Source: Candidatus Latescibacterota bacterium
Lineage (GTDB): Bacteria > Latescibacterota > UBA2968 > GCA-2709665
Direction: 5' to 3'
Assembly: GCA_965219455.1 (NCBI GenBank)
Contig: OZ244744.1
Location: 384,001-448,000, forward strand
Length of the DNA: 64,000 nucleotides
The translations under genes and the position numbers were made by a program. Below are positions 4,764 through 22,401 of the stretch, in pieces (position 1 is the first letter of the stretch; each line of letters starts with the position of its first letter). The notes beneath the pieces are model-generated. The model ran no database searches. It had not been told where the DNA came from and saw only the letters and a list, made by a program, of their open reading frames with translations.

Positions 4764-6865
4764 GTGATTCATACCGCATCGGAATCGACATCGGCGGCAC
4801 GTTCACCGATGCCGTGGTGATGGACGAGAAATCCGGCGACTTCCATCCCGTCAAGGTCTCCTCCACTCCGGACGATCCTTCACGGGCTTTCATGGAGGCG
4901 TATACGCGGGGCCTCGCCAACCAGGATCTCACGGCCGAACAGGTGCGTTTTGTGGTACACGGCACCACCGTGGCAACCAACACGATCATTCAACAAAAAG
5001 GCGCGCGGATAGGCCTCATCGCCTCGGAAGGCTTCAGCGACGTTTTCGAGATCGCCTGGCAGATCCGCCCGAACCTCTACGACCTCGATTACGACAAACC
5101 CCCTCCGCTCGTGCCGCGGCACCTCTGCATGGGCGTCCCCGAACGCATCGACGCCCATGGCGGGCTGCTTGTCCCTATGGACGAAGGCGCCGTGTACCGT
5201 GCCGCCCGTAAACTGGCGAAAGATCGCGTAGAAGCGATTCTCGTCTGCTTTCTTCACGCCTATAGAGACCCGACCCACGAGCGCCGCGCCGCTGAAATCA
5301 TCCAGGAAGCCTGCCCCGGTCTACCCGTCTGTATCTCCTCCGACATCTGTCCCGAGTACCGCGAATATACCCGCGCCAGCACGACCGCCGTCAACGCCGC
5401 CCTGCTTCCCGCCGTGGGCGCCTACGTGGAGCGGCTGGAGGATCGGCTCGGGAATGTGAACGCGGGCTCCGGCCTGTTCCTGATGACCTCCGGCGGCGGG
5501 ATCATTGCCTCCGGCACCGCCAGACAGCAGCCCGTACAACTCATCGAATCCGGGCCGGCAGCGGGCGTGATCGCCGCTTCGTACATCGGCCAGCTCGCCG
5601 GTTTCGAAAACCTTATTGCTCTGGACATCGGCGGCACGACCGCGAAGGCCGCCCTCATCGAAGACGGCCGGCCGCGCCTGGCCGCCGAATTCGAGGTTGG
5701 CGACGCCGCCGTCGCAACCACCACCAGGGACAAGGGCCAGGGATATCCGGTAAAAACACCGGTCATCGATCTGGTTGAAATCGGATCCGGCGGCGGCAGC
5801 ATCGGCCACGTCGATCCAGGCGGGGCGCTTGCCGTCGGCCCGCAATCCGCGGGCGCGGCGCCGGGACCCGCCTGTTACGGGAGAGGGGGTTCCGAACCCA
5901 CGCTCACGGACGCAAACCTTGTTCTCGACCGGCTCAATCCCCACTATTTTCTGGGCGGAGAACTCTGCCTTCACAAGTCTCTCGCGAAAGAGTCGATCGA
6001 GAGTCGCATCGCCGGGCCCATGAATATGGACGTCGAAGAAGCGGCCGCCGGCCTGATTGAAATCGCCAACGCCAACATGACCGGCATCCTTCAACTCGTT
6101 TCGGTACAGAAAGGCGTGGACCCACGCGCGTTCGTACTGGTCGCTTTCGGCGGCGCCGGCCCCCTCCACGCCGCCGCGCTCGCAATGGCGCTGCATATCC
6201 GCACTGTACTCGTACCGCCCAGCCCGGGCGTTACCACCGCGCTCGGTCTGCTCGTTACCGACCTGCGTCACGACTACGTTCGTACCTACATTTCAAAAAC
6301 GGACGACCTGGACCTGCCCGGCCTTTCGGGCATCTACGGCGAATTCGAAGAAAATGCGACCCGCCTGCTTTTGAGCGAGGGCGTCTCCCGCTCCAATATC
6401 CGCTTCGTCCGGGAGGCGGACATGCGGTATACGGGCCAATCCTACGAACTTCGAGTACCCGTGAGCCGGTTGTCAAAGGATCTTCCCGAGAAACTAGACG
6501 CCGCTTTCTTCGCCGCACACCGGCGCCAGTACGGTTTCGCAACCCGGGATGAGCCCACGGAAATCGTCAATGTACGCCTCTCCGCCGTGGGAGCCGTTCC
6601 CCGCCCCAGCCGGCGGCAGGCTCCCAAAGGCAGACCATCCGCGCACGCCGCACTGAAGGCCGAACGCGACGTCCAAATGCCCGGGTCGGCCGGCCGGGCG
6701 ACAACGGCGATTTATGACCGGTATCGCCTGAAGGCGGACAACCGCTTCACGGGCCCCGCCATTGTTGAGGAAATCGACTCCACAACGTTTATTCCCCCAG
6801 GGTGTACGGTAAACGTAGACGACTACGGCAATCTCGTTATCGACACCGGCCCAGGGCCGCCGTAA
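4760..6865 (+). CDS. Hydantoinase A/oxoprolinase family protein (ATP-binding subunit)
   Basis: IGIDIGGTFTD, HGTTVATN, ESGPAAG, DIGGTT, GPQSAGA.PGPACYG and FGGAGPLHA motifs; ATGA overlap with the upstream gene. Confidence 0.93.
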   Translation: MSDSYRIGIDIGGTFTDAVVMDEKSGDFHPVKVSSTPDDPSRAFMEAYTRGLANQDLTAEQVRFVVHGTTVATNTIIQQKGARIGLIASEGFSDVFEIAWQIRPNLYDLDYDKPPPLVPRHLCMGVPERIDAHGGLLVPMDEGAVYRAARKLAKDRVEAILVCFLHAYRDPTHERRAAEIIQEACPGLPVCISSDICPEYREYTRASTTAVNAALLPAVGAYVERLEDRLGNVNAGSGLFLMTSGGGIIASGTARQQPVQLIESGPAAGVIAASYIGQLAGFENLIALDIGGTTAKAALIEDGRPRLAAEFEVGDAAVATTTRDKGQGYPVKTPVIDLVEIGSGGGSIGHVDPGGALAVGPQSAGAAPGPACYGRGGSEPTLTDANLVLDRLNPHYFLGGELCLHKSLAKESIESRIAGPMNMDVEEAAAGLIEIANANMTGILQLVSVQKGVDPRAFVLVAFGGAGPLHAAALAMALHIRTVLVPPSPGVTTALGLLVTDLRHDYVRTYISKTDDLDLPGLSGIYGEFEENATRLLLSEGVSRSNIRFVREADMRYTGQSYELRVPVSRLSKDLPEKLDAAFFAAHRRQYGFATRDEPTEIVNVRLSAVGAVPRPSRRQAPKGRPSAHAALKAERDVQMPGSAGRATTAIYDRYRLKADNRFTGPAIVEEIDSTTFIPPGCTVNVDDYGNLVIDTGPGPP

Positions 6866-7005: not shown

Positions 7006-7102
7006 GAGAACAATCCCCGCCGGGCATCCCGGCCCCGTGGCCCCAATCCCTCCCCGACATTTTACCCTCCCCCGTACCCCTTTGCAACAAGGAGCCACAA
7101 CA

Positions 7103-9454
7103 ATGAACGTCGCCGTCACCGAAGGCGTCTATTCAAAAGACAGCTATGAACCCAACCTCTGCACCCTTCGTGACGACAAAACGTGCTGGACCGGCTGGGC
7201 GGCCTACGGCGCCGCGGGGTCCAGGACATTTGTCCGGAAATTCGTCGGGGAGAACGCCGGTCCCGTGGAGCCGCTGTCCCCCAACAACACCATGCAGACG
7301 CGCCCCATCTGCATCCCGAACGGAGGTCAGTTGGTGTTTGTATGGCTTGAAAAAACCGGCCGGGAATACGCGTTTTGGACCCGCAAACATGATGGAAATG
7401 CGTTCACCCGGTGCCGGAAATGCCACGTCCTGCCCGCTTCGGCGAAGGTCTGGGAGCCGCAGGCCCTCGTCGACGAAAGCGGCGCCCTCTGGATCTGCTG
7501 GGCCCACTCCGTCAGGGGAGACAGCCGCATCGAAATCGTCAGAAACCTCCCCGATGGCGAGACCGCAACGTATTCGATCGGAAACCGGGTACGCTACAAT
7601 TACCGGCCCAGGATGGTCGAACGGGGGTCGGACGGCGTCTACATCATCTGGGACAGCTACGTCGGCCGCACCTACGACGTCTACGGCTGTGCGGTCGATC
7701 CGGCGGGCCCTCGGAAAGAGGTCAAGATCAGCCGCGGCGACGGGTGGGAAAACAGGCCGACCCTCTGCCGGGACGGCGGCGGTGCACTCTGGGCGGTGTG
7801 GGTGCACGGCGTGGACGTTATGTACAGATGCAGCACCCTCCAACAGAAATACTCATTGCGGGGCGCCCGTCTGGACGGTCGGTCCTGGGAGCCCCTGTCG
7901 GGTGCGGAAGGAGGGGCCGACATTGCGCCGCTCCACTACGGGCTGTTAACCGATTTCCCGAAACCGCCCAACCTGGGGCATATGGGCAGGCAGCTCTTCC
8001 CCATTCTCAAGGGCGCCGAAGCCGACGGCGTCTGGCTTTTCTACGAGGTCAAAGCGGACAGCGAGCAGGGCACACTCACGTCCAGGGGCCGCCTCTTCGG
8101 CCATACCTGCGCCGATGGCGTCTGGTCGGATCCGTACGACGTGGCCGAAGGAAACATCTTCTACGAGCTACCCCACAACGGCTCGGTCGGAACGGCGGTC
8201 CACCTCCTGTCCCAGGACATGATCACCGATGAGCGGTACCTGGAAAGGGTCCAACTCTCCACCGACCTCCCCGTTGTGCCTCCTGAAAAACGCCGCATTC
8301 ACCTGACCGAATGGAAGGAAGTCCGGCTTCCGTTCGAGAAACTTCGAGAGACGGGCCGCCCCCGCAACGAGCTTCCCGGCGGGGAGAGCGAAAAATACCA
8401 CCTCTTCTGGGTGGACCTGCACTGCCACTCGGCAGCCTCCATCGAAATGGAAGGTGAGCCGGATGAGTTGGGCCACTACGCCCGGCACAAAGCACAGATC
8501 GACGGGCTGACCGTTTCCGACAACGACTGCTTCTGGAACCTGCCCACCCGTCAGAACGTGCGCCACCTGAAGGACTACGAGTGGGACTACGTCAAAGGCA
8601 ACGCGATGGTCCTCAACGACCCCGGACAGTTCGCCATGTTTCCCGGCTACGAAATGACCATCACCGACCGGGTGGACTCCGGGCGGGACCACCGATCGGT
8701 GATGTCGGGCGACGACGAAATGGAAATGGACCTGCTTCACTTCAAGTACAAGGAGGCCCATACGAAAGGTGAGCGGCATACCCACAAGGACACCGGGGAG
8801 TGTCTCGCCTGGTTCAAAGAAAAGGGCTACCTCTCCCTCCCGCACCCCCACAACGGGAAATGGAACCTCTACGACACGGACGTCGAGTGGGGCATCGACG
8901 TGTGTGCCGCCTGGATGATCAACATCGACCTTTACGACATCTATTTCAGATACCTCGATGCGGGCCATAAATTCGCCTTCACCGGCAGCGGAGACAGCCA
9001 CCACCGAAACCCCGGCTTGAGCGGCGCGCTCACCGGCGTCTGGGCCGAACGCCTGGACCGTGCCGCCTTTCTGAACGCGATCAAAGCGAGACGCTGTTAC
9101 GCAACGGCCGGGCAGAAAATCCTGATCGAATTCACGATCAACGATCAGATGATGGGTAGCTCGCTGGTTGTCGAGGACGACCCGGTGTTGAAGTGGCGCG
9201 TCGTGGGCGAAGCGGGCCGGGAATACATCCTGCGCGTCCACCGGGACGGGCGTCTGATGCACGACGACCGGTTCATCGGCCAGACCCGGGGAGAGCGAAG
9301 AGAATTCCAATTGCGCCGGTATCGCCCCGGAAAGCACTACTACTACCTCGAAGTCCTGTCACCCGACCCCATCCCCCAATACCCGAACAACGTCGCGCAC
9401 GCCATGGGCGCCAGGGGATGGAGCACACCCATCTGGGTGGAGACATCGGAATGA
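7103..9454 (+). CDS. PHP-like/DUF3604-like metallohydrolase with N-terminal beta-propeller-like region
   Basis: GGAG RBS at 7091. DLHCHS, PGYE, HPH, GSGDSHH, LTGVWA..L.R...AIKARRCYAT and WSTPIWV motifs. Confidence 0.7.
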   Translation: MNVAVTEGVYSKDSYEPNLCTLRDDKTCWTGWAAYGAAGSRTFVRKFVGENAGPVEPLSPNNTMQTRPICIPNGGQLVFVWLEKTGREYAFWTRKHDGNAFTRCRKCHVLPASAKVWEPQALVDESGALWICWAHSVRGDSRIEIVRNLPDGETATYSIGNRVRYNYRPRMVERGSDGVYIIWDSYVGRTYDVYGCAVDPAGPRKEVKISRGDGWENRPTLCRDGGGALWAVWVHGVDVMYRCSTLQQKYSLRGARLDGRSWEPLSGAEGGADIAPLHYGLLTDFPKPPNLGHMGRQLFPILKGAEADGVWLFYEVKADSEQGTLTSRGRLFGHTCADGVWSDPYDVAEGNIFYELPHNGSVGTAVHLLSQDMITDERYLERVQLSTDLPVVPPEKRRIHLTEWKEVRLPFEKLRETGRPRNELPGGESEKYHLFWVDLHCHSAASIEMEGEPDELGHYARHKAQIDGLTVSDNDCFWNLPTRQNVRHLKDYEWDYVKGNAMVLNDPGQFAMFPGYEMTITDRVDSGRDHRSVMSGDDEMEMDLLHFKYKEAHTKGERHTHKDTGECLAWFKEKGYLSLPHPHNGKWNLYDTDVEWGIDVCAAWMINIDLYDIYFRYLDAGHKFAFTGSGDSHHRNPGLSGALTGVWAERLDRAAFLNAIKARRCYATAGQKILIEFTINDQMMGSSLVVEDDPVLKWRVVGEAGREYILRVHRDGRLMHDDRFIGQTRGERREFQLRRYRPGKHYYYLEVLSPDPIPQYPNNVAHAMGARGWSTPIWVETSE

Positions 9455-9544: not shown

Positions 9545-10888
9545 TTAGCGGGTCCAATTCAAATACAGGTTAACTGCGGTAAAGTTGACGATCGCCCAGA
9601 TCGTCAACAGCAATCCAAGTTCCGTCCAGACGGACATCCGTTCCCTGTCCGCAGCGCGCATCGCCAGGTGCACCACACCGTAGGCCATCGGAATCAGCAG
9701 CAGGTTGTTGGCGTTGGCCCCGATCAGCACCAGGGCAAGCGGCGTATCGGGAGTTGCAACGGTCACACAAAGCCACAGAAACGGAAAGCCGATCTGCAAT
9801 GCCCGCAGCAACCGAAGACGGACCTCGTCGCTATCCAGCCTGGCGACGCCCGTCTGCCTCAGAAAATCCACGCTGATGCGACCTGAACTGGCCGTAAACA
9901 CGAGCAGCGTGGAAAACAGCGTGCAGAAAGCGCCGAACATGAACACGTTTTTCGTCCACGGACCGATACTTCGGGTAAAAATCAGCGAAACCTGCTCCAC
10001 GACCTCCATGCCCTGGGGGACCACGTTCAGCTTCTTCAATATCGAGGCCCCAAGCAAATAGTAGGCGCAGGTAATCACCAATGCGATCCCGGTGCATACC
10101 AGCGCGTCGGTCTTCAGCACCCGCATCCAGCCCCGATACCGCGCCCGCCATTCGGGCGTATCCTCCCGGGGCCCCACAAAATCCGCGTATCCCTTCTCCC
10201 GCACCCAGTATGGATACATAAACAACTCCACCGCAGTCGCGCCCACGGACCCCATCACGGCCAGGGCCACAAACGCCCCGTCCGCGGGCAGGGCAAAGCG
10301 AAACCCCGATAGGACCTCCTCGCCCCCCACGGCGTATGGCGTCGCCTGCATCGCCAACACCGACCCGATTACGACAAGGCTGAAGCCCGCGACCAGTATG
10401 GTGATCATTCGCTCCAGATCGGCGTACAAGCCCCTGTAAAGCAGCGCAGAGATGGCCGCAAAAATCAGCACGGCCCACACGTTGTACGGGACGCCGGGAA
10501 AGAGGGTTACCATCAGTCCGGCCACGGACCCAAGGATGCCGATCACGGCAATCATCACCGAAAAATAACCCAGAACGCACAACCATGCCGCCCAGGAGGT
10601 ATTCACCAGCCGTATCCCGGGCACGCGGTCCAGTACCTGTATCGTCGTGCTGTTGTGCAAAACGCACTGGCGCCCGAGTTCAAGTTGAATGAAGAACTTG
10701 ATCACGCAAGCCAGGATCACCCCCCAGAGAAACGCGAAGCCCACCTCCGCCCCCATGCGCGTGGTCACCAGCAACTCGCCTGAGCCGACGACCGAACCCG
10801 ACACAACCACGCCCGGTCCGATATTCCGCAGCAATCCCCCCACGCCCCGCGGCGCCTCTCGAACCGGCCGCTCAGCTGTATTCTCCAT
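9545..10888 (-). CDS. Nramp-like (YcsG-type) secondary transporter
   Basis: Multiple TM segments. IGPG..SGSVVGSGEL, KFFIQLELGR and YPYWVREKGY motifs; lacks the MntH DPGN motif. Confidence 0.75.
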   Translation of the reverse strand: MENTAERPVREAPRGVGGLLRNIGPGVVVSGSVVGSGELLVTTRMGAEVGFAFLWGVILACVIKFFIQLELGRQCVLHNSTTIQVLDRVPGIRLVNTSWAAWLCVLGYFSVMIAVIGILGSVAGLMVTLFPGVPYNVWAVLIFAAISALLYRGLYADLERMITILVAGFSLVVIGSVLAMQATPYAVGGEEVLSGFRFALPADGAFVALAVMGSVGATAVELFMYPYWVREKGYADFVGPREDTPEWRARYRGWMRVLKTDALVCTGIALVITCAYYLLGASILKKLNVVPQGMEVVEQVSLIFTRSIGPWTKNVFMFGAFCTLFSTLLVFTASSGRISVDFLRQTGVARLDSDEVRLRLLRALQIGFPFLWLCVTVATPDTPLALVLIGANANNLLLIPMAYGVVHLAMRAADRERMSVWTELGLLLTIWAIVNFTAVNLYLNWTR

Positions 10889-10983
10889 AAACGAACCCCG
10901 CGACTTTATCCGACACTGCACAGTTTACGATGAGCCGAATGCCGCATGCCCGGACGAGGCCGGCACACACCCCGCGCCTGGCA

Positions 10984-12318
10984 TTAGTAGACCGGCAGAT
11001 AGCGTTCACGCTCCCACTGGTCGACGTGCAGATGGTACTCCGCCCACTCTTCGCGCTTCACCTGCACGTAATAGTCAGCATACTCCGTACCCAGCGCTTC
11101 CCGGACCACATCGTCGGCCGCCAGGTGATCGGCCGCCTCCGCGAGGGTACCCGGCAGCAGGTCGATACCCCGCGCTTGCAACTCGCTCTCGGGCACCTCG
11201 TAGAGATTGCCCTCGTTGCGCTCGCCCGGTTCCATGCGGTTTTCGATGCCATCGAGCCCGGCCGCCAGCATCGCCGCGGCCGTCAGATATGGATTGGCCG
11301 CCCCGTCGACGGCCCGATTCTCGATACGGCCCGCGTCCGGGATTCGAATCATCTGTGTCCGGTTTGATCCGCCATAGGTGATGCAGATCGGCGCCCAGGA
11401 CGCGCCCGAACGCGGTGCGCCCCTCGTGAGGCGCTTGTAGCTGTTCACCAGAGGCGCGGAAACGGCCGAAATCCCCTTTGCATGGTTAAGGATCCCTGCC
11501 ATAAACCAGTAGGCTTCCTTCGACAGGCCGTTTTCATCCGCCTCGTCGAGGAACAGGTTCGTCCTGTTCTCAGGATCCCACAGGCTCAGGTGATAATGCG
11601 CTCCGCTTCCCGTGAGATGAGAAAACGGCTTCGGCATAAAGGTCGCGTGGTATCCGTGCCGCTCCGCGTTTACTTTCACCATCCATCTGAAAAAGGTCTG
11701 TCGATCGGCGGTCGTCAGCGCGTCGGAATAGGTCCAGTTGATCTCGAACTGGCAATTTGCGTCTTCGTGGTCGTTGGCATAGGGTTCCCAACCCAGTTCC
11801 TGCATATATCCGATCAGCGTGGTCATCACATCCAGGTTGCGATGCAAGGTTACGAGATCGTAGCAGGGCTTCTCCAATGTGTCCAGCGGATCGGCCAGCG
11901 CATAATTGTTCCGGTCGTCTTTTTTCAGGAGGATGAACTCCGCTTCCACGCCCAGATTCAACCGATATCCCTTCGCCTCCGCCCGTGCAAGTTGCCGTTG
12001 CAGAATCGTGCGCGGACAGTACCCGAAAGGCTCTCCCTCGACCTGGATATTGCCCGCCACCCACGCCGTATTCTTGCGCCACGGCAATACGGTCATTGAA
12101 TTAAAATCCGGTATATTCATCATATCGGAATCGTGCGGCCCCTGCCCCATATTCCCGGCCGCGAACCCCGCGAATCCCGCGCCATCCGAGGCCATATCGT
12201 CAAGGTGTGTGACGGGCACCACCTTGGCCTTTGGCATCCCGCCCATCTCCACAAACGAACACAGAAAGAAGTCTACTCCATTCCTGGCTACGAATTCTTT
12301 TACCTGGTCCAGCGTCAT
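10984..12318 (-). CDS. gmaS: Type III glutamate-ammonia ligase / gamma-glutamylmethylamide synthetase
   Basis: KAKVVPV, GAGFAGFA, KPCYD, NDHEDANCQFEINW, FMPKPF and YGG.NRT motifs; located in a cluster with tdm and mgsC-like genes. Confidence 0.85.
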   Translation of the reverse strand: MTLDQVKEFVARNGVDFFLCSFVEMGGMPKAKVVPVTHLDDMASDGAGFAGFAAGNMGQGPHDSDMMNIPDFNSMTVLPWRKNTAWVAGNIQVEGEPFGYCPRTILQRQLARAEAKGYRLNLGVEAEFILLKKDDRNNYALADPLDTLEKPCYDLVTLHRNLDVMTTLIGYMQELGWEPYANDHEDANCQFEINWTYSDALTTADRQTFFRWMVKVNAERHGYHATFMPKPFSHLTGSGAHYHLSLWDPENRTNLFLDEADENGLSKEAYWFMAGILNHAKGISAVSAPLVNSYKRLTRGAPRSGASWAPICITYGGSNRTQMIRIPDAGRIENRAVDGAANPYLTAAAMLAAGLDGIENRMEPGERNEGNLYEVPESELQARGIDLLPGTLAEAADHLAADDVVREALGTEYADYYVQVKREEWAEYHLHVDQWERERYLPVY

Positions 12319-12338
12319 CGTCTGATCTCCCTCAAAAA

Positions 12339-12575
12339 TCAAGGTTGGGAATTCTTGCCCTCGCCTTCTATTGCCGTTGCGAGATGACTCGCCTCGGCCA
12401 ACTGATCCAACTCGTCCTGATAATTTGCTCTCTCGTGTCTGATCTGCCAGAATGTGTACGCTATCCACAAGCCAAGACAAAACACGAAGAGAGGAACCTC
12501 GTACCCGACAAAGGGATACATCGGACCCACGTCGGCCGGATTCCCCACCCACGTGTCTATCAAACCCGTGCTCAT
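12339..12575 (-). CDS. Small single-TM membrane protein in the methylamine cluster
   Basis: AAGGAGG RBS; 78 aa; DVGPMYPF.G.E followed by one hydrophobic helix; ends 20 nt before gmaS. Confidence 0.7.
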   Translation of the reverse strand: MSTGLIDTWVGNPADVGPMYPFVGYEVPLFVFCLGLWIAYTFWQIRHERANYQDELDQLAEASHLATAIEGEGKNSQP

Positions 12576-12722
12576 CTGCCGCCTCCTTACATTGGTGTGT
12601 TTACAAATACGAGTCGTTTCATTCGGGACCGCAAGCGAAGCGTCTCAGATCGGGAATTGACGGATTTCCAACCTGCCCTGCTCGTTGGAAATGGCGATCG
12701 CCACCGATATCGGCTCTCGGCG

Positions 12723-14408
12723 TCAGAACAGACCGACGGTCTGTCCCGCTTCATCGAAATCGATCGCTTCTGCCGAAGGCTTTCGTGGAAGCCCGGGCAT
12801 CGTCATGACGTCACCCGTGAACACCACCACAAAACCGGCCCCTGCAGACACCCGCACGTCGCGGATGGGCACGTCGAAACCCGTGGGTCTTCCCTTCAGC
12901 TTCGGATCGGTCGAGAGCGAATACTGTGTCTTGGCCATGCACACCGGCAGACGCCCGTAACCCTGTTCATCGAGCCTTTTGAACCGGGCTCTCAAGCGCT
13001 TGTCTCCCATAATATCGTCGGCGCCGTAAATTTTCCGGGCTACAATTCGTGCTTTATCCCACAACCGCCGATTATCAGGATAGAGAAGGGTGAAATCGGA
13101 GGTCGCCGTCTCTGCTGCTTCAACCACCGCGCGTGCAAGCGCTTCGGCCCCGACCCCGCCTCTCGCCCAGTGTTCCGATGGCACGATCGGGACTCCCAGG
13201 CAGACGGATTTTTCCTGTATTAACCTTACTTCTTCGGACGTGTCAGACAGAAAGACGTTTACGGCCACGACAACGGGCAAGTCGAAAAGCCGGATATTCT
13301 CGATATGCTTCTTCAGATTCTCCAACCCCTTTTCAGTCGCAGACATGTTGGGCAGTTCGAGCTGCCTGACCGGAATTCCGCCATGGTATTTCAACCCACG
13401 GACGGTGGCCACCAGCACAACCGCGTCGGGCCGGATGCCAGCCTGCCGGCACTTGATGTTCAGGAACTTCTCCGCGCCAAGATCCGCGCCGAATCCGGCC
13501 TCGGTCACCGTATACTCGGAAAGGCGCATCGCCAGCTTGGTCGCAATCACCGAATTGCAGCCGTGCGCGATATTGGCGAACGGGCCCCCGTGAACAATGG
13601 CCGGGTTGTTCTCGAGTGTCTGGACCAGATTCGGCTTTAATGCGTCTCTCAACAGCACGGCCATCGCCCCGTGCACGTTGAGATCTGCTGCCGTGAGCGG
13701 TTCGTTTGCCCGCGTGTACGCCACGATGATCCGACCCAATCGCTCCCGCAGTTCCCCAAGCGATTCTGACAGGCAAAGGATCGCCATCACCTCGGATGCG
13801 ACCGTAATTTCAAACCCCGATTCACGGGGATAGGAATTCCCCGTACCTCCCAGACCGATAACGGTTTCCCGCAGCGCCCGGTCGTTCATGTCCATCACGC
13901 GCTTCCACAGGATGCGCCGGGGATCGATGTCCAGCCTGTTCCGGTGATGAATATGATTGTCAATCGCCGCGGCCAACAGATTGTGGGCGACACCGATAGC
14001 ATGGATATCGCCCGTAAAGTGCAGGTTGATGTCCTCCATCGGCGCAACTTGAGACGCGCCGCCGCCTGCAGCGCCGCCCTTCATGCCGAAACAGGGACCC
14101 AGAGAAGGCTCCCGGAGACAGATGACCGCTGGCTTTCCCAGCCGATTCAGCGCATCACCCAGACCCACGGTTGTGGTTGTCTTGCCCTCTCCGGCAGGCG
14201 TCGGATTGATCGCCGAGACCAGCACCAGCTTGCCCGTGGAATTTCCGGCCACGCTGTCGTAAAAGTCCATCGAAACCTTGGCCTTGTACCTGCCGTAGAT
14301 TTCGAGCTGATCTTCGGGTACCCCCAATGTTTGCGCGACCTCGCCGACATGAAGCAAATCGGCTTGCCTCGCGATTTCGATGTCCGGCAACACGCCATGA
14401 TCGCGCAT
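12723..14408 (-). CDS. fhs: Formate--tetrahydrofolate ligase
   Basis: [52 protein letters not shown] and MTMPGLP motifs. Confidence 0.97.
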
Positions 14409-14417
14409 AGGTCCTCT

Positions 14418-15812
14418 CTAGTTTCCCCTTTGCGCTTCATCGATTTCCACCTGAACGAGTTCGTTTGCGTCCGCCGTTTCGTTCTCGATCGTCCGGTGAT
14501 CCATACCCGCCAGTTCAATTCGCCTCGGGATGCGGAGAACCCCAAGCTTCTTGAGGATTGCCCCCACGACGTAACACGGCAGAAAACCCAGCACAAAAAA
14601 CATGATGACGGCCCCGAGCGTCTGTCCCCACGGCGTAATCGGCGCGTAAGCGGGATTCGCACCCGGATACCCCCAAAGTACGAATCCTGCGACGATCACC
14701 CCGATGACCCCGGCATATCCATGTACCGCCACGGCGCCCACGGCATCGTCAATTCTGAAACGGCGTTCGATCCAGTTGTGCAACTTGTAGATGCAGAACG
14801 TACCGAATGCGCCGATGAGAAGCGCCTGCATCGGATGGTACAGGTCGTTTCCCGCCGATGCCGTGATGATGCCCGCCAATCCGCCGGAGAAGGTCCAGTA
14901 CGGATCGCCTTTGGACACGAAATACCCCATCATCAATCCGCCCGCAAGGGACATTAGAAAATTAAAGGTGATGGCGCTGAGCGTCGTCGGCGTAAGATAA
15001 ATCGTAGTGGCCGAAAAGAACGACCGGCCGTCCGCGGGATCGATGTCCATAATGGGCACGTTGCAAGCCGCATAGAAGCCCCAGAATCCCGTATAAATCA
15101 AAAACAGCCCGATGATCACCAGCCAGGTGTTGTGCGGCGGGAAATTTCTCGGTGACCCGTCCGGCTTGAACCTGCCGATGCGCGGCCCCAGGTGATAAAG
15201 AATCGCCAGCGCGGACCCGCCGCAGATCGCGTGGATCACGCCGGACGCGTACGCATCGTGATACCCCAGTACCTGCACCATCCAACCGTCTGCGGACCAT
15301 CCCCACGCCGCGTCGACTACCCACGTTACCGATCCCACCAACACCGCAAAAATCCAGAATGCGCTGGATCGGATGCGTTCAATCACCGCGCCCGAAAGAA
15401 TCGATCCCGCCGTCCATGCAAACAACAGAAACGCCGCCCAGAACACGCCGTTCAACCGCGCCCAGAGCGCCGTATCGGCCCCTGTCAACCCCCCTCCATG
15501 CGGCTTTCCTCCCATATGTGTTCCCATCAGCTCATTCCAGGGCGCAGCCCATGCGGCTTCGATAAGCCCACCCGTGATCCCGGGCCCGTTTTGAACCGCG
15601 AAATAGATCCACCACCCGAAAAAATAGAACGTGACGGTTACCAGAGGAATCAGCATCGCGTTCTTCATCAGGGTGTGCATCATATTCTTCCGCCTGGACA
15701 CGCCGACTTCGTACAGACAAAACCCGACATGGATCAGGAACATGAGCACGATGCATATCCAGTAATAGAACTCTGTAAACACAACGGTCAATGCACTGAG
15801 TTCGTTATCCAT
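14418..15812 (-). CDS. amt: Ammonium transporter family protein (possible methylamine transporter)
   Basis: About 11 TM segments. SGAVIER, GVIH, LGPRIGRF and DDAVGAVAVHG motifs (twin His retained). Confidence 0.88.
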   Translation of the reverse strand: MDNELSALTVVFTEFYYWICIVLMFLIHVGFCLYEVGVSRRKNMMHTLMKNAMLIPLVTVTFYFFGWWIYFAVQNGPGITGGLIEAAWAAPWNELMGTHMGGKPHGGGLTGADTALWARLNGVFWAAFLLFAWTAGSILSGAVIERIRSSAFWIFAVLVGSVTWVVDAAWGWSADGWMVQVLGYHDAYASGVIHAICGGSALAILYHLGPRIGRFKPDGSPRNFPPHNTWLVIIGLFLIYTGFWGFYAACNVPIMDIDPADGRSFFSATTIYLTPTTLSAITFNFLMSLAGGLMMGYFVSKGDPYWTFSGGLAGIITASAGNDLYHPMQALLIGAFGTFCIYKLHNWIERRFRIDDAVGAVAVHGYAGVIGVIVAGFVLWGYPGANPAYAPITPWGQTLGAVIMFFVLGFLPCYVVGAILKKLGVLRIPRRIELAGMDHRTIENETADANELVQVEIDEAQRGN

Positions 15813-15866: not shown

Positions 15867-16355
15867 TCAGACTTTGGCCGACCCTTCCGACATCCGGCAA
15901 TACTTCCCGCGGTAAAACAGCAGCGGACGACCCGCGCCCGCATCGCCCGCTACAATCTCACCAACGAAAATGTCGTGGTCCCCGGCTCGCAACACGTCGA
16001 CCAGCAGACACTCCACGTGGCCCAGCGCGTCCACGAAAACCGGCGCACCTGTCCGGTTCGTGGTTGTGGCCACGTTTGAAAAATCCTTGGGACCCGGTCT
16101 GGCAAACTGCGTGGAAAGCGCTTCCTGATCCTCGCTGAGAATATTCAATGCAAAAACCCTGCTTCCACTCAGATGGGCGTGCATCTGCGCCCCTTTGTCC
16201 ACGGCCACCATGACCAGCGGCGGATCCAGCGACAGCGAGGTCACCGCATTGGCCGTCATCCCCCGCGATTCGCCGCCTGCAACCGTCGTCACAACGGTTA
16301 CGCCGGTTGCAAAACAACCCATAATGCGGCGTTGCTCCATCGGGTCGAACGCCAT
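15867..16355 (-). CDS. Flavin reductase family protein (HpaC/RutF-like)
   Basis: FATGVTVVT, GMTANAVTSLSLDPPL, GDHDIFVG and PLLFYRG motifs. Confidence 0.92.
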   Translation of the reverse strand: MAFDPMEQRRIMGCFATGVTVVTTVAGGESRGMTANAVTSLSLDPPLVMVAVDKGAQMHAHLSGSRVFALNILSEDQEALSTQFARPGPKDFSNVATTTNRTGAPVFVDALGHVECLLVDVLRAGDHDIFVGEIVAGDAGAGRPLLFYRGKYCRMSEGSAKV

Positions 16356-16474
16356 TCCAATACCCTTTCAGCGAAAGCGGTGTCGCATACGGCGCCGTCC
16401 GCCGCCGGACATCCGGGCCCCTCGAACGGGGCCGCCGTGATGACCGGTGAAGAGTAGCAGATTCTGCTTTGTGA

Positions 16475-18808
16475 TCAGGAACGCGGCCGGGTTTTCTCCG
16501 GATCGTAAAACGGAAACCGCACCACCCGGGCGGGGATGCGCTTCTGATGACCGTCCAGCCTTCCCACCTCCACTTCCACGCCGATCGCGGCGTACCCGGA
16601 CGCCATGCGGCATAGCGCGATATTCTTGCGCAAAATGGGTGAGCGGCTGCCGCTGGTGATCACGCCCACGCGGCCGCGCCCATCGTAGACGCCGTCGCCG
16701 GTGGCGGCCGGTTCGTTTCCGGACACCTCCAGCCCCACCAGCGCCCGTTGCGGATGCGACCGCCTTCGAATCAGCGCCTCTTTACCTATAAAATCGTCTT
16801 TCTTGCGCTTGAGCGGAACGGTGAAGCCTATACCCGCCTCAAACGGGTCCGTCTGATCGTCAAACTCACAGCCCGCGAAGACCAGACCAGACTCAATCCG
16901 CAGCATGTCCAGGGCTTCCAATCCAAGCGGTGTCAGGCCATACGGCTGTCCCGCCTCCCAAATGGCATCCCAGACCGCAGGCGCATCGTGGGGATGGCAC
17001 CATACCTCATAACCCAGTTCGCCCGTGTAACCCGTCCGGGATACGACAATTGCCGCTCCGCTGCCATCGCCAATTCGACCCACCGTAAATCGGAACCAGC
17101 CCAATTCGTCCAGTGACGGGCGGGACGGAGGCGTCCAGATGATTTCGCGCAGAATTTCCCGGCTCCTGGGGCCCTGAACGGCAAGATTGTGGAGTTGGTC
17201 GGTCGAGTTTCTGACCCATACACGCATCCCCAGGCGACCCGCCTGCTCGCGCAACCACGTACCCCCGTAATCGTCGCCGCAGATCCAGCGGAAATTCTCG
17301 GACCCCAACCGAAACAGCGTGCCGTCGTCCAGCATCCCGCCTGTTTCGTAACACATGGCGGAATAAGTCACCTGCCCCGCCGAAAGCCTGCGAACGTCGC
17401 GTGTGAGCGTGTGCTGCAACAGCGCCTCGGCGTCCGGCCCGAGAACCTCGAACTTGCGAAGCGCGGACAGGTCCATCACCACCGCCGCCTCGCGGCAGGC
17501 GTAATATTCCTCAACGACGCCCTTCCCGGTATAGCTGGCGGGCAGCCAAAAACCGCGATATTCCTCAAAATGGCGAGTCAAGGCAGAGGTGCGTTGGTGG
17601 AAGGCCGTCTCCCTCGTCAACCTCGGCTCGGCGTCTGCTGTCATCCGGTGAGCAATCCCTCTGGAAAACCGGTACCGTTCAGGGTAAACGCGGACCTGAA
17701 TCTCCGTTGGCTCCCAGCCATTGGCCGGATCGATATCGTCCGGGCACGCGGACGACAGGCAGACCAGGTCCGTTAAGGCTTTCAACAGCACGTAATCGCC
17801 CGGACGAGACCATGGCTCATCCATGAAAAGGACGTTATTTCGATCGATTCTCGTATTGTAGAAAAAATTCACCGCGGGCCAGCCACGCCGGCGCTGAATC
17901 GTATACGGGTCCAATGCCACGTTGAAGTTGTCCGTACAGTTGACGTGACCGGGATAACCCATATCCTCGTAATATTTCGCGGTGCAGGCAAGCGCAAACG
18001 TATCGTGCCGCCCTACCGTATCCCGAACGACTTCGACCAGCGGCTGCATATCCTGGTCGTAAAATTTCGAAAACAGGCCCGGACCGGGATAGGCCGCGCC
18101 CATGAGCGTCCTCGTCGTGGTCGCATCCAGCCCCCGCTCGACACCCCGCTGCAATTGCCTGGCGTCGAATGCCAGAAAATCGGAACACTGGCGACCAGCG
18201 ACGTCGATCACCTGGATGAACTCTCCCGCCTTGACCTCGTAGGCAATTGCCGACGCCCTTTCTACCTCCCGATCCAGGCGCATGTCACCCAGGGGCGCGG
18301 GCATAGGGGGGCGTTCGGGCATTTCTACACGGGAACGCCTGACCACGACTTCCAGGTCCGTGGGGGGATCCTGGGCATCGGCCCTCATCGGACCGCCGGG
18401 CGCCGCAATTACGCAAACGGCGTCCCTCTCGACGGCGAAACACGCTTCGGTGCCCGCTTTCGTCTCTCCACCGAAAACCTGCGCCGCCCGTGCGTCCGAC
18501 AGGTCGACGCCCCTCCGCCGCAGGGCAGCATCAGCCGCCTGCGCGCTTTCGTCCCCGCGCCGGAGCGCCGCCGCGAAACCCTCCATCGCGCCGTCCGCCC
18601 GGAGGCCCAGCCTCGACGGATCGTCACCCCCGTCCGGGCCGAATACGCCCAGTTCGCAACGCTGGCGCCCTTCCACGTCCACAACCGCCAGTTGATCGCC
18701 CTGTGACAGCGCCAGGGCGATCGCCCCGCCGCCCGGCACCCGGTAGCGCTCCCTGCCCGGTGACCACCTCAGCAATCCGGTTCCCGTCATTTGGACGTTT
18801 GCAGGCAT
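16475..18808 (-). CDS. tdm: Trimethylamine N-oxide demethylase (DUF1989 + GcvT-type aminomethyltransferase)
   Basis: DUF1989 region (GRQCSDF, RHDTFALAC, GHVNC, SACPDDIDPAN) fused to a GcvT domain (DLSALRKFE, SRTGYTGELGYE, LRIESG, FYDPEK); TGATG coupling to the upstream gene. Confidence 0.85.
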   Translation of the reverse strand: MPANVQMTGTGLLRWSPGRERYRVPGGGAIALALSQGDQLAVVDVEGRQRCELGVFGPDGGDDPSRLGLRADGAMEGFAAALRRGDESAQAADAALRRRGVDLSDARAAQVFGGETKAGTEACFAVERDAVCVIAAPGGPMRADAQDPPTDLEVVVRRSRVEMPERPPMPAPLGDMRLDREVERASAIAYEVKAGEFIQVIDVAGRQCSDFLAFDARQLQRGVERGLDATTTRTLMGAAYPGPGLFSKFYDQDMQPLVEVVRDTVGRHDTFALACTAKYYEDMGYPGHVNCTDNFNVALDPYTIQRRRGWPAVNFFYNTRIDRNNVLFMDEPWSRPGDYVLLKALTDLVCLSSACPDDIDPANGWEPTEIQVRVYPERYRFSRGIAHRMTADAEPRLTRETAFHQRTSALTRHFEEYRGFWLPASYTGKGVVEEYYACREAAVVMDLSALRKFEVLGPDAEALLQHTLTRDVRRLSAGQVTYSAMCYETGGMLDDGTLFRLGSENFRWICGDDYGGTWLREQAGRLGMRVWVRNSTDQLHNLAVQGPRSREILREIIWTPPSRPSLDELGWFRFTVGRIGDGSGAAIVVSRTGYTGELGYEVWCHPHDAPAVWDAIWEAGQPYGLTPLGLEALDMLRIESGLVFAGCEFDDQTDPFEAGIGFTVPLKRKKDDFIGKEALIRRRSHPQRALVGLEVSGNEPAATGDGVYDGRGRVGVITSGSRSPILRKNIALCRMASGYAAIGVEVEVGRLDGHQKRIPARVVRFPFYDPEKTRPRS

Positions 18809-20202
18809 CACCCCTCATCGGCTTCGGCCAGAAGCTGCCGCGCGAGTTCCTCCTTTTCCTTACCGTCCATCTTCCTGATTTCGTTCCTCAATAACCGTTC
18901 GTTCACGGACTGGTTCCAATAATCCAGGGAGTCAAAACCCAGCAGCACGCTCTTGCCCACAAACTGGCGGAGGACCTCGTTGGTTGGGCCCATCACCCAA
19001 CCGGCCTTACCGTCACGCAGGTATCGTTCGATCCCCAGATCGGGTTTGTACCCGGTACCGCCACAGGCATGAAGCATCTTGTCGGAGACGTTCGCCACGT
19101 TCTTTGCCGCCGTGAACTTCACCTGCCACATCCAGTGCAGCACCTGTGCCCGGGGCAGGCAGGCGAGGTCCTCGTGGATCGACCAGTCGCACTGGTTCGT
19201 CACATCGTCCATCGCCCTGGCCATCAGGTAGACAAAGGACCGGGAGGTGTTGGTATCGATCACGGCCTCGCCCACGTAATCCTGGATCGTCGGATAGTCC
19301 GCCACCCGCATACCCACGTCCGCGTGCCGTCTGGCGGTCGTGTGTCGCGTGGCGATATCGATCATCCCCAAAGAAATGCCGTTCCAGCAAGCCGATGAGC
19401 ACAACAGGAAAAACGGATCCACCGTTTCGTCGTTCGAATTCGCCCCGTCGCCCACGGGCCCGACCAGCCTGCCCTCCGGCATCGTCACGTTGTCGACCTC
19501 AAGCGTGCCGGACTGGTTCCCGCGCAGCCCCAGGCCATCCCACAGGGACGGCTCGGCTTTCACCTCGTCGGCCATCACGAGAAAACAGGACAGATTCGAA
19601 TAATCCCCCGCGAAATCCGGACTCGTCGTCTGCACGATGTACCAGTCGGCAAAACCCGCGGACGTCGTCCACGACGCCTTTTTCCGCACCTTCCAGCCGT
19701 CCGCCACCCGCTCGGCCCCGGAAGATATCGGATACCAGAAATGAGAACCCGTCTCCGGGTCCGAGTAGGATAACGTGCCTACCAGCACGTCTTCGTCGAG
19801 GCGTTTCATGAGATCCTGGAGGGTCGGGTTGTCGTGCGCCCGGAACAACGCCGCGGCCACGGCCCCGATGTGCATGGTATAACACATCGCCGTACTGGCG
19901 CACCCGTACCGCGCAAGCGTCTCCACCACCATCGCCGTACACGTATGGTTTTCCCCCAACCCTCCCCACTCCCGGGGTACGTTCAATCCGAGCAGGCCCA
20001 GCGAAGCCATCGCCTCGAAGTTTTCCCGCGGAAACACAAGGTTGCGATCGCTCTCTACCGCGTTATCCCGCAGCGTTGTCCGGCAAAGTTCGATCAGTTT
20101 CTCCTGTAGCGCCTCCTGCTCAGGTGTCAGTACCCATTGGGGGTCCCAGTCGTAGTCCATACCCCAGAACGCCTCCGGGCCCCACATCTTTGTTTTGCTC
20201 AT
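18808..20202 (-). CDS. Acyl-CoA dehydrogenase-fold flavoprotein (non-canonical; possible monooxygenase)
   Basis: GLLGLNVP.EWGGLG, SDPETGS, W.GLGLRG..S and GG.GY....IERYLRD motifs; the catalytic IYEGT Glu is absent (WVMGPT). Confidence 0.85.
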   Translation of the reverse strand: MSKTKMWGPEAFWGMDYDWDPQWVLTPEQEALQEKLIELCRTTLRDNAVESDRNLVFPRENFEAMASLGLLGLNVPREWGGLGENHTCTAMVVETLARYGCASTAMCYTMHIGAVAAALFRAHDNPTLQDLMKRLDEDVLVGTLSYSDPETGSHFWYPISSGAERVADGWKVRKKASWTTSAGFADWYIVQTTSPDFAGDYSNLSCFLVMADEVKAEPSLWDGLGLRGNQSGTLEVDNVTMPEGRLVGPVGDGANSNDETVDPFFLLCSSACWNGISLGMIDIATRHTTARRHADVGMRVADYPTIQDYVGEAVIDTNTSRSFVYLMARAMDDVTNQCDWSIHEDLACLPRAQVLHWMWQVKFTAAKNVANVSDKMLHACGGTGYKPDLGIERYLRDGKAGWVMGPTNEVLRQFVGKSVLLGFDSLDYWNQSVNERLLRNEIRKMDGKEKEELARQLLAEADEG

Positions 20203-20917: not shown

Positions 20918-22288
20918 TCAGTACCTGTTCATTTCGGGATGTCCGACGGTATAGCGGGTGCCTGCCAGCGGCACCTCCGCCATGGCGGATGCCTCCATTG
21001 TGAGCGCGGCAAGATCCTCCGGCTCCAGGGAATGCACATCCGTCTTTCCGCAAGCCCTGGCGAACATCTGACATTCGATGGCCAGGGTATGCAGGAAGTT
21101 GAATACCCGTTCGGCCGCCTCGTCCGGGTCCAGACGGCTTCGCAGCACCGGATCCTGAGTGGCCACGCCCACCGGACACAGTCCGGTGTGGCAGTGATAG
21201 CAGGAACCCGCCGGTACGCCGACCGTGCCCTCGTAATCCGCCTCGGGAATATCCTTGTTGCAATTCAGCGCCACCATCGCCGCCGTGCCGATGGCCACCG
21301 CGTCGGCGCCGAGCGCCAGCGCCTTGGCAAGGTCGGCTCCGTTGCGAATCCCGCCTGCATAGACGAGCGTAATCTCCCCGGTCTTGCCCACGTCGTCCAG
21401 GGCCTTTCTGGCCTGCCTGATGGCCGCAATGCCCGGTACGCCCGTCTCCTCGGTGGCCAGGTGGGGACCCGCGCCCGTTGACCCCTCCATTCCGTCCATA
21501 TAAATGCTGTCGGGGCCCGTCTTCGCCGCCATCCGCACATCGTCGTAAACCCGAGCCGCGCCAAGTTTCAACTGAATGGGAATCTGCCAGTTGGTCGCCT
21601 CGCGAATCTCCTCGATCTTCAACGCCAGATCGTCGGGCCCCAGCCAGTCCGGGTGCCGCGCCGGCGAACGCTGATCGATCCCCGCCGGCAACGAACGCAT
21701 CTCGGCCACCTGGTCGGTCACCTTCTGGCCCATCAGATGTCCGCCAAGCCCTACCTTGCATCCCTGACCGATAAAAAACTCCACGCCGTCGGCGAGACGC
21801 ATATGGTGTGGATTGAACCCGTAGCGTGACTGAATGCACTGGTACAGCCATTTCTCCGAATACCGGCGTTCGTCGGGCAGCATGCCGCCTTCTCCGGAAC
21901 ATGTCGCCGTACCCGCCATCGTGGCCCCTCTCGCCAGCGCCACCTTCGCCTCGTAGGACAGCGCCCCGAAGCTCATCCCCGTTATGTAGACAGGAATATC
22001 CAGCACCAGCGGCCGCCTGGCCATAGGCCCCAGGACCGTCCGGGTTTCACATTTTTCACGGTACCCCTCGATCACGAACCGGGTGAGCGTGCCCGGCAGA
22101 AACGTCAGGTCGTCCCACGATGGAATCTGCTTGAAGAGCGCCATACCGCGCATACGGTACCGACCCAGATTCGCCTTGATGTGTATATCGTCGATCACAT
22201 GGGGCGGAAACATGAAATTCCTGCCCAGAACCTGCGGGTTCCGGTCGGACCTTCCATTGTCGTGGCCATTATCTCTACGCGCTTCCAT
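20918..22288 (-). CDS. mgsC: FMN-binding glutamate synthase family protein (N-methylglutamate synthase subunit C)
   Basis: GMSFGALS, SGEGG, GQG.K.G.GG.L.G.KV, SPARHPD and CxxCxxxxCP.G.ATQD Fe-S motifs; heads the gmaS/tdm cluster. Confidence 0.8.
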   Translation of the reverse strand: MEARRDNGHDNGRSDRNPQVLGRNFMFPPHVIDDIHIKANLGRYRMRGMALFKQIPSWDDLTFLPGTLTRFVIEGYREKCETRTVLGPMARRPLVLDIPVYITGMSFGALSYEAKVALARGATMAGTATCSGEGGMLPDERRYSEKWLYQCIQSRYGFNPHHMRLADGVEFFIGQGCKVGLGGHLMGQKVTDQVAEMRSLPAGIDQRSPARHPDWLGPDDLALKIEEIREATNWQIPIQLKLGAARVYDDVRMAAKTGPDSIYMDGMEGSTGAGPHLATEETGVPGIAAIRQARKALDDVGKTGEITLVYAGGIRNGADLAKALALGADAVAIGTAAMVALNCNKDIPEADYEGTVGVPAGSCYHCHTGLCPVGVATQDPVLRSRLDPDEAAERVFNFLHTLAIECQMFARACGKTDVHSLEPEDLAALTMEASAMAEVPLAGTRYTVGHPEMNRY

Positions 22289-22401
22289 AAGACAATACTC
22301 CCGGCTTCGCATCTGGGGGATGACGGCCTTGTCCCCGTCGATTCGCCGATTACGGGGCGCACTAAAGCGTTTCGTTGTATTTGCGGACGGGAAATTGCTA
22401 G

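Follow-up and report, generated by a model that had tools for sequence, protein, structure and literature searches.

The window, i.e., the whole stretch of 64,000 nucleotides analysed here (contig OZ244744.1 of a Candidatus Latescibacterota bacterium, positions 384,001 to 448,000), contains on its minus strand a row of methylated-amine and C1 genes. Central to this row is tdm, which encodes trimethylamine N-oxide (TMAO) demethylase (Tdm). Upstream of tdm lies a gene for a protein with the fold of the acyl-CoA dehydrogenases (ACADs), designated P0001, and downstream of tdm lies a gene for an NAD(P)H:flavin reductase (Table 1). The first-pass annotation of this DNA had described the ACAD-fold gene as coupled to tdm via TGATG, the reductase gene as following tdm, and the ACAD-fold protein as lacking the catalytic Glu of its family. 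All three descriptions hold: the stop codon of the ACAD gene (TGA, 18810-18808) overlaps the start of tdm, for which GTG at 18811 and the in-frame ATG at 18808 are the two candidates; the reductase gene belongs to family PF01613 and starts 119 nt beyond the stop codon of tdm; and both positions at which an ACAD may carry its catalytic base are occupied by other residues. The ACAD-fold protein and the reductase (“the pair”) are very probably, to judge from gene content and distribution, a reduced-flavin-dependent oxygenase functionally bound to Tdm. With a probability of roughly 55%, the pair would be a two-component monooxygenase that oxidizes trimethylamine (TMA) to TMAO for Tdm, in place of the known TMA monooxygenase, Tmm.

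Acyl-CoA dehydrogenases carry a catalytic Glu either at the position typical of medium-chain acyl-CoA dehydrogenase (MCAD) or at that typical of isovaleryl-CoA and long-chain acyl-CoA dehydrogenases (IVD/LCAD), and P0001 carries it at neither. In the HMMER alignment with the solved ACAD 8i4p, G405 of P0001 (in “VMGPTNE”) stands opposite the catalytic Glu of “YEGTNQ”, and F264 stands opposite the Thr position of “LDHTR”, the base position of the IVD type in helix G. Across 18 family members neither residue varies, and neither is acidic, which argues that the ACAD-fold protein is not a dehydrogenase. The residues W178 and T180 of the flavin-site motif have been kept. Three genomic hallmarks of the group D flavin monooxygenases are present, namely the ACAD fold (with Pfam matches to the ACAD N, M and C domains), the lack of the ACAD catalytic carboxylate, and a PF01613 partner gene.

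The best NCBIfam model for P0001 is that of Rv1679/FadE16 (NF049984), with 219.7 bits against a cut-off of 600, which places P0001 outside that family. The models for DszC, SfnB and HsaA give 51-70 bits against cut-offs of 430-850; those for SfnB (70 bits) and DszC (51 bits) describe ACAD-fold oxygenases that act on sulfur. Nitrososynthases (DnmZ, 4zxv; KijD3, 3m9v; ORF36, 3mxl) are matched with E values of 1e-9 to 1e-11.

Linkage to tdm and to flavin reductases

The relatives of P0001 form a family with 72-98% identity across at least six phyla. Cluster representatives with 75-94% identity to P0001 number more than 120, and the sources name them simply “acyl-CoA dehydrogenase” or “AidB-like”. 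The family has sharp limits: among 1.84 billion representatives there are a few full-length relatives at 38-74% identity, followed by Rv1679-like proteins at about 30-35%. Relatives are encoded in 255 stretches (from one-genome-per-species contigs), of which 80 were kept as the set of loci. These are labelled Latescibacterota, Gemmatimonadota, Acidobacteriota, Alphaproteobacteria (Dongiaceae, Rhodospirillales, Xanthobacter, Virgifigura, Dongia), Verrucomicrobiota, Cyanobacteria and Gammaproteobacteria.

Of the 80 loci, 56 contain tdm; among the 50 with at least 5 kb on both sides the number is 42, 31 of these having it within 3 kb. By group, tdm was found in all full-flank loci from Latescibacterota (10/10) and Gemmatimonadota (3/3), in 8/9 from Acidobacteriota, in 21/27 from Alphaproteobacteria/Pseudomonadota, and not in the single unlabelled one (0/1). 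In 21 loci from several phyla, the ACAD gene overlaps tdm or is at most 78 bp away. Whole-genome searches of 50 carriers (the genomes of 50 of the 80 loci, mostly on long contigs) revealed Tdm in 49, of which 46 scored above the cut-off. In an even sample of 401 Alphaproteobacteria, the clade (defined by at least 68% identity) occurs in 9 of 37 Tdm-positive genomes and in none of 364 Tdm-negative ones (nominal Fisher p = 1.8e-10), two of the latter holding only a sister copy of 59% identity. Thus, loci, carrier genomes and the alphaproteobacterial sample, profiled as a check on the first-pass annotation, agree that the clade is linked to tdm beyond the window.

Within the Latescibacterota, Tdm occurs in 17 of 168 genomes, from two families only, and all 17 have the ACAD-tdm arrangement (13 are the carriers G001-G011, G048 and G050 by their coordinates; G499 and G500 carry the gene; G495 matches the genome of L007; the other is G000). 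This looks like a joint acquisition of the ACAD gene and tdm. Two genomes of the same genus that seemed to be without Tdm (G497, G498) were considered as cases of co-loss, which was rejected: the G497 contig ends inside the ACAD gene, and G498 has a frameshifted operon. The latter (L087, G498:C12:192000-208000) comprises the whole operon with frameshifts in the genes for Tdm (six pieces), the ACAD-fold protein (three pieces), Amt, GmaS and the small open reading frame (ORF), and with intact genes for formate-tetrahydrofolate ligase (FTHFS), the reductase and the MgsC-like protein, reflecting either decay of the operon or an assembly error.

A homologue of the PF01613 reductase is present in 48 of the 80 loci and lies less than 500 bp from the ACAD gene, on the same strand, in 21. 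These include loci where tdm is 5-7 kb off, and so the reductase appears to pair with the ACAD gene rather than with tdm. For the reductase in the window, the top NCBIfam models are HPA hydroxylase reductase, HsaB, FerA and StyB, all under their cut-offs.

Independent of gene order, a reduced-flavin oxygenase is also suggested by sister proteins in which the two functions would reside in one chain. These proteins (P0123, P0130, P0135, P0300-P0363), with 38-53% identity to P0001 and about 770 residues, are fused at the C-terminus to an FNR/Fre-type reductase module (FAD_binding_6 + NAD_binding_1). By source name, their hosts are animals, namely aquatic invertebrates: lobster, prawns, shrimps, crabs, crayfish, mantis shrimp (a stomatopod), an isopod, amphipods including the hadal Hirondellea gigas, krill, barnacles, an ostracod, the annelid Owenia, the brachiopod Lingula, and several corals. 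Several of these genes are located on multi-megabase scaffolds. Of the top 120 matches to the lobster protein about 66 are animal fusions, and the next are members of the bacterial Tdm-linked clade, with 52-56% identity. In a quick maximum-likelihood tree, with SH-aLRT support only, the animal clade (support 100) nests together with the Tdm-linked bacteria in a group of 38 rows (support 100, stem 1.33), apart from the Rv1679-like proteins.

Substrate of the ACAD-reductase pair

In the proposed mechanism, free FMN or FAD would be reduced by the reductase at the expense of NAD(P)H, and the oxygenase would bind the reduced flavin together with O2, giving a C4a-hydroperoxyflavin that would N-oxygenate TMA to TMAO. 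Tdm, the product of the overlapping downstream gene, would then cleave TMAO to dimethylamine (DMA) and formaldehyde, the latter captured as methylene-tetrahydrofolate (methylene-THF), and the FTHFS, Amt and GmaS-like ligase of the same gene row would deal with the C1 unit and methylamine. The chemistry agrees with TMA as the substrate: Tmm itself acts by heteroatom oxygenation via a flavin hydroperoxide, and for the ACAD fold there is precedent in the group D enzymes isobutylamine N-monooxygenase and dibenzothiophene monooxygenase (PMC6165268, Table 1). Residues E259, D262, W273, W402 and W178 are conserved in the bacterial clade and in the animal fusions but not in the Rv1679-like relatives, and D262 and W402 adjoin the former catalytic positions of P0001. 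Such acidic and aromatic residues would fit a pocket for a small cationic amine. In the main texts of the literature searched, no description was found of an ACAD-fold protein and flavin reductase acting in this way on TMA or DMA. At slightly better than even odds, the pair would be a new function within the known ACAD-fold (group D) two-component monooxygenases and a non-orthologous replacement of the class B enzyme Tmm.

The genome from which the window comes is a single contig of 5.84 Mb, rated 100% complete. It has no match to PF00743 (the family of flavin-containing monooxygenases, FMOs, to which Tmm belongs), and tblastn searches of it with Tmm1, DmmA, DmmB and DmmC of plasmid pAMI6 gave no match. 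The positive controls in the same searches were matched, i.e., Tdm (57% identity), GmaS (41%) and MgsC (54%). The pAMI6 gene assignments are those of PMC4543880. The genome also has no match to PF11927 (DUF3445/DmmC); since the control genomes for PF11927 were unmatched too, the tblastn searches with their positive controls carry the weight of the DmmC negative. The search of the genome for a TMA or DMA dehydrogenase gave no clear candidate, the one weak partial match being to PF00724 (old-yellow-enzyme, 70.8 bits). Thus, the lack of tmm and dmm that the first-pass annotation had reported for the window extends to the rest of the genome, where it had recommended looking.

Across genomes, Tmm was found in 4 of the 50 carriers, in none of 6 further carriers, and in 20 of 28 Tdm-positive non-carriers (one of the 20 being a fragment with stops), the last two groups together forming a sample of 34 Tdm-positive genomes. 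When pooled, this amounts to 4/56 carriers versus 20/28 non-carriers (nominal Fisher p = 1.8e-9). Such near-exclusivity indicates that the pair and Tmm are alternative partners of Tdm, as a functional replacement of Tmm predicts. In Xanthobacter flavus and X. oligotrophicus, the order dmmD-ACAD-reductase-tdm...dmmABC is found in one cluster, there is no Tmm in the genome, and the pair occupies exactly the slot that Tmm has in known clusters.

Several observations weigh against the pair being a TMA oxygenase. The Fisher tests given here overstate independence, as the genomes are related. Many of the genomes are metagenome-assembled. Eight of the 34 sampled Tdm-positive genomes have neither Tmm nor the ACAD, and so a TMA oxygenase is not obligatory beside Tdm. 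The Acidobacteriota rarely have a PF01613 reductase near the ACAD gene (1 of 9 full-flank loci). The predicted structure of P0001 is also ambiguous in this respect. An AlphaFold2 model with the ACAD fold and a predicted local distance difference test (pLDDT) of 92 was obtained from an alignment of 49 sequences that included relatives at 25-35% identity; it replaced a model from 18 sequences (75-86% identity to the query), which at pLDDT 47 was unusable. When the PDB was searched with Foldseek, the top matches (TM-scores 0.83-0.92, normalised by target length) included both ACADs and the “flavin-containing monooxygenase” 5z8t, and thus a fold search cannot tell an oxygenase from a dehydrogenase. 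Finally, four carriers possess Tmm as well (L045, Virgifigura deserti; L060; L075; the genome of L062), with Tmm sitting between the ACAD gene and tdm in three of them, and none of the four has DmmC. As Tmm is already there and Dmm was not found, the pair would be redundant in these four genomes as a TMA oxygenase, and a function in the DMA step would fit.

The pair might therefore be a DMA-oxidizing system standing in for DmmDABC, e.g. by N-hydroxylation, possibly followed by a Tdm-like demethylation of the hydroxylamine, to yield methylamine for the GmaS-like ligase. This main rival is unlikely on balance, and it draws on the same four genomes (three with all the genes in one cluster), where the pathway is complete only if the pair handles DMA. 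In the window genome, with an operon that ends in the GmaS-like ligase and Amt, and with no match to DmmA, DmmB or DmmC nor a clear TMA/DMA dehydrogenase, the step from DMA to methylamine is a conspicuous gap. The occurrence of DmmC is more equivocal. Real DmmC (66-76% identity) was found in 2 of the 50 carriers (both Xanthobacter species, with two weak DUF3445 matches besides), in none of the 6 further carriers, and in 5 of the 28 non-carriers. The pooled figures (2/56 versus 5/28, p = 0.04) make DmmC somewhat rarer in carriers, which supports a DMA function and speaks against TMA; within the alphaproteobacterial sample alone they are 1/9 versus 5/28 (p = 1). However, 23 of the 28 Tdm-positive non-carriers are also without DmmC, and so a missing Dmm requires no substitute. 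Moreover, Xanthobacter has DmmDABC in the same cluster as the pair, and a DMA function does not predict the strong exclusivity with Tmm. Flavin hydroperoxides N-oxygenate amines and are not known to hydroxylate methyl C-H bonds, and N-hydroxylation of DMA gives no direct methylamine, which counts against DMA as the substrate. A search of the literature for activity of Tdm with dimethylhydroxylamine found no paper, and this counts against it also, as do the fusion homologues in TMAO-accumulating invertebrates without known DMA catabolism (PMC10077225). A variant in which the pair may oxidize both TMA and DMA has in its favour that none of the carriers examined has both Tmm and Dmm, which leaves room for a dual role.

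The first-pass annotation had proposed the pair as a group D type monooxygenase for one of the two steps, the oxidation of TMA or the demethylation of DMA. Its enzymatic part is supported by the adjacency of the reductase and the sister fusions, and a place in one of the two steps by the linkage to tdm and the lack of tmm and dmm. As to which step, the complementarity with Tmm favours TMA, and the four genomes with Tmm but without Dmm keep DMA in contention.

It is rather improbable that the pair, as a reduced-flavin oxygenase, acts on some other small heteroatom compound (such as dimethyl sulfide, a different tertiary amine or a hydroxylamine) and is merely co-regulated with Tdm. The weak scores with the SfnB and DszC models can be read in this way, as can the presence of the fusion in corals and annelids, which are not noted for TMAO, and of sister copies with 59-61% identity in genomes without Tdm. 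In PMC13352529, group D enzymes oxidizing dimethyl sulfide or dimethyl sulfoxide are described from a screen in Acinetobacter baylyi, and Tmm itself is stated to oxidize dimethyl sulfide too. Against such a substrate stand the occurrence of Tdm in nearly all carriers and the absence of the clade from all 364 Tdm-negative alphaproteobacterial genomes of the sample, the overlap or close spacing of the ACAD gene and tdm in 21 loci, and a cluster whose other genes are purely those for methylated amines and C1 units. That the ACAD-fold protein is a real dehydrogenase or oxidase with tightly bound FAD (for acyl-CoA or acyl-ACP, or an amine or nitroalkane oxidase), the reductase serving e.g. Tdm, is highly improbable: sequence and fold searches both give bona fide ACADs as its best matches, the database names say the same, and most Acidobacteriota loci have no reductase nearby, but both catalytic-base positions are invariantly non-acidic, the reductase stays directly beside the ACAD gene when tdm is distant, the sister proteins carry an NAD(P)H-flavin reductase module in the same chain, and no CoA-metabolism genes were found in the cluster by Pfam/NCBIfam annotation of the window.

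Returning to TMA as the substrate, the animal fusions provide a lead. Amphipods and decapods are reported as TMAO accumulators in PMC10077225, and the occurrence of fusions in TMAO-accumulating groups points to TMAO formation, making the clade a candidate invertebrate TMAO synthase. Perhaps, and this is put forward tentatively, there is a previously unrecognised class of TMA N-oxygenases with two forms of shared ancestry, one a bacterial two-component enzyme and the other a self-sufficient oxygenase-reductase fusion; the bacterial form together with Tdm may process both TMA and DMA, as a minimal TMA-to-methylamine module, and the fusion form could be the enzyme that makes TMAO in crustaceans, hadal amphipods, barnacles, brachiopods, annelids and corals.

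Metatranscriptome contigs from four runs in three studies cover the operon. In one run, short contigs with 0-4 mismatches each lie over the genes for the reductase, Tdm and the ACAD-fold protein, and in the three others, contigs of 6.7-6.9 kb from relatives of about 95% identity extend from tdm to the MgsC-like gene, taking in the ACAD gene and the small ORF, the X18 contig also holding part of the reductase gene. The parts not covered in X15 (e.g. 12086-13378) carry no evidential meaning. As contigs cannot prove transcription, their presence in RNA libraries lends weak support.

Methylated amines are a major pool of organic nitrogen in the sea and in soil and are precursors of climate-active aerosols, and tmm is the marker gene in surveys of TMA oxidisers. 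If the pair is a second, unrelated TMA oxygenase, surveys based on tmm miss TMA degraders; to judge from the record titles of the loci, these would be found among Latescibacterota, Gemmatimonadota, Acidobacteriota, Dongiaceae and other Rhodospirillales, Xanthobacter, and cyanobacteria. If the pair acts on DMA, it would explain how the many Tdm-positive organisms without Dmm escape the “DMA bottleneck” described in PMC5520151. Some carriers are available in culture (Xanthobacter flavus, X. oligotrophicus, Virgifigura deserti, Dongia deserti and Hypericibacter adhaerens), and the animal fusion homologues provide a specific candidate for the gene behind TMAO synthesis in marine invertebrates.

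Neighbouring genes and sister copies

The genes in the row are listed in Table 1.

Table 1. Genes of the tdm row in the window, in the direction of reading on the minus strand
Gene product	Position	Strand	Matches and remarks
MgsC-like FMN-binding glutamate-synthase-domain protein	20918-22312	-	PF01645, E 1.5e-89; 53% identity to pAMI6 MgsC
Conserved ORF, 138 aa	20414-20830	-	Located between the genes for the MgsC-like and ACAD-fold proteins
ACAD-fold protein P0001, 464 aa (proposed oxygenase component)	18808-20202	-	PF02771, PF00441, PF02770
Tdm, trimethylamine N-oxide demethylase (DUF1989 + GcvT domains), 778 aa	16475-18811	-	NF053776, 1252.4 bits (cut-off 1100)
NAD(P)H:flavin reductase (HpaC/StyB/HsaB type), 162 aa (proposed reductase component)	15867-16355	-	PF01613, E 1.6e-43
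Amt-family transporter (possible methylated-amine or ammonium uptake)	14418-15812	-	PF00909, E 6.5e-58; TIGR03644 (marine subtype), 159 bits, under cut-off
Formate-tetrahydrofolate ligase (FTHFS, fhs)	12723-14408	-	PF01268, 865 bits; NF010030, 866 bits (cut-off 652)
Type III glutamine-synthetase-like ligase (GmaS-like)	10984-12552	-	TIGR03105, 586.8 bits (cut-off 469.6), residues 85-519
Nramp transporter	9545-10921	-	Member of the gene row

The identity of Tdm is well defined: domain matches to PF09347, PF01571 and PF08669 give the DUF1989 + GcvT architecture, the protein is a member of NF053776, and it has 57% identity (tblastn) to Tdm of Paracoccus aminophilus pAMI6. On that plasmid, an Amt gene likewise adjoins tdm. 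The proposed role of FTHFS is in the C1 oxidation of methylene-THF released by Tdm. The GmaS-like ligase has 41% identity to glnT/GmaS of pAMI6, and the real start of its gene is probably about 75-85 codons 3′ of the listed GTG. Upstream of the operon region is a hydantoinase B/hydantoinase A (oxoprolinase-type) pair at 3009-6865 on the plus strand, and after this pair comes an 805-residue ORF (7037-9454) that weakly matches DUF3604.

The MgsC-like gene, which the earlier description of this DNA did not discuss, is separated from the ACAD gene by the small ORF. That this gene encodes DmmC was considered and ruled out, because in the pAMI6 annotation DmmC is a DUF3445 protein and the gene in the window is MgsC-like. 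In the window it stands without MgsA or MgsB upstream, and in relatives from Latescibacterota, Gemmatimonadota and Acidobacteriota (L012-L015, L024, L027, L028) it is preceded by mgsA and mgsB. The 138-residue ORF has no Pfam match and no usable Atlas match. It has 66-92% identity in relatives and is co-located with the MgsC-like gene in several phyla, the two together being conserved at 66-97% across phyla. A canonical mgsABC-mgd cluster lies elsewhere in the same genome, at contig positions 4,846,056-4,850,649, and thus the N-methylglutamate pathway (mgsA-mgsB-mgsC-mgdA) is encoded away from the tdm operon. Near that cluster is a further MgsA/MgsB pair with a glutamine-synthetase-like (GS-like) gene (G000 contig C1, region to about 4,857,894).

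Sister copies with 59-61% and 49% identity are found without tdm nearby (G090:C1:2654841-2656220, G440:C11:1274917-1276296, L084:8934-10316, L083:8188-9555). Two of the copies come from genomes that have no Tdm at all, and one copy of 49% identity is near a diverged mgsABC-like set. These copies may act on other amines. The neighbourhoods of the paralogues in L083 and L084 (49% and 61% identity) are mixed (an mgsABC-like set, sulfatase, cupin, HldE, GGT) and give no hint of a substrate. In L045, L039, L051 and L016, further ORFs annotated with Pfam contributed little, several probably being spurious ORFs in GC-rich DNA.

Comparison with known systems

The closest relatives of P0001 outside its own family are the Rv1679/FadE16 proteins. 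These share with it an “RD..AG.VM.PT” motif without the catalytic Glu, together with H111 and T180, but differ in having only about 30-35% identity and in being separated by a long branch (stem 1.33 in the quick tree). A literature search established no function for Rv1679/FadE16, the papers listed there being, to judge from the listing and the opening lines of the abstracts, proteomic or transcriptomic, or battery studies that merely matched the term. In the alignment, the Rv1679-like proteins P0173-P0265 are likewise without the ACAD catalytic Glu. On these residues, the whole superclade, including the Rv1679-like proteins, may consist of oxygenases rather than dehydrogenases.

DmmDABC (where DmmC is a DUF3445/HODM protein and DmmB a PDR/VanB reductase) is comparable to the pair in its possible role in the same pathway and is co-located with it in the Xanthobacter clusters, but the two have no homology.

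The known group D enzymes (isobutylamine N-hydroxylase, DnmZ, KijD3, ORF36, DszC, HsaA and C2-HpaH) resemble the pair in having the ACAD fold without the dehydrogenase base and a PF01613 reductase partner, and they provide precedent for both N- and S-oxygenation. Their sequence kinship to P0001 is remote. Unlike them, P0001 belongs to a sharply separated clade, the nearest relatives of which are uncharacterised Rv1679/FadE16-like proteins. To our knowledge, no known member of group D acts on methylated amines in catabolism.

Tmm, a class B FMO (PF00743), catalyses the reaction proposed for the pair, TMA + O2 + NAD(P)H to TMAO, i.e., the step directly before Tdm. In Paracoccus aminophilus pAMI6, it is found in the same neighbourhood as the pair, with tdm, dmm, amt and gmaS (PMC4543880). 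Its fold is unrelated: Tmm is a single-component, Rossmann-type enzyme with bound FAD and NADPH, whereas the pair combines an ACAD fold with a separate reductase. P0001 matches only ACAD families and not PF00743, and can thus be seen as a proposed analogue of Tmm rather than a member of its family.

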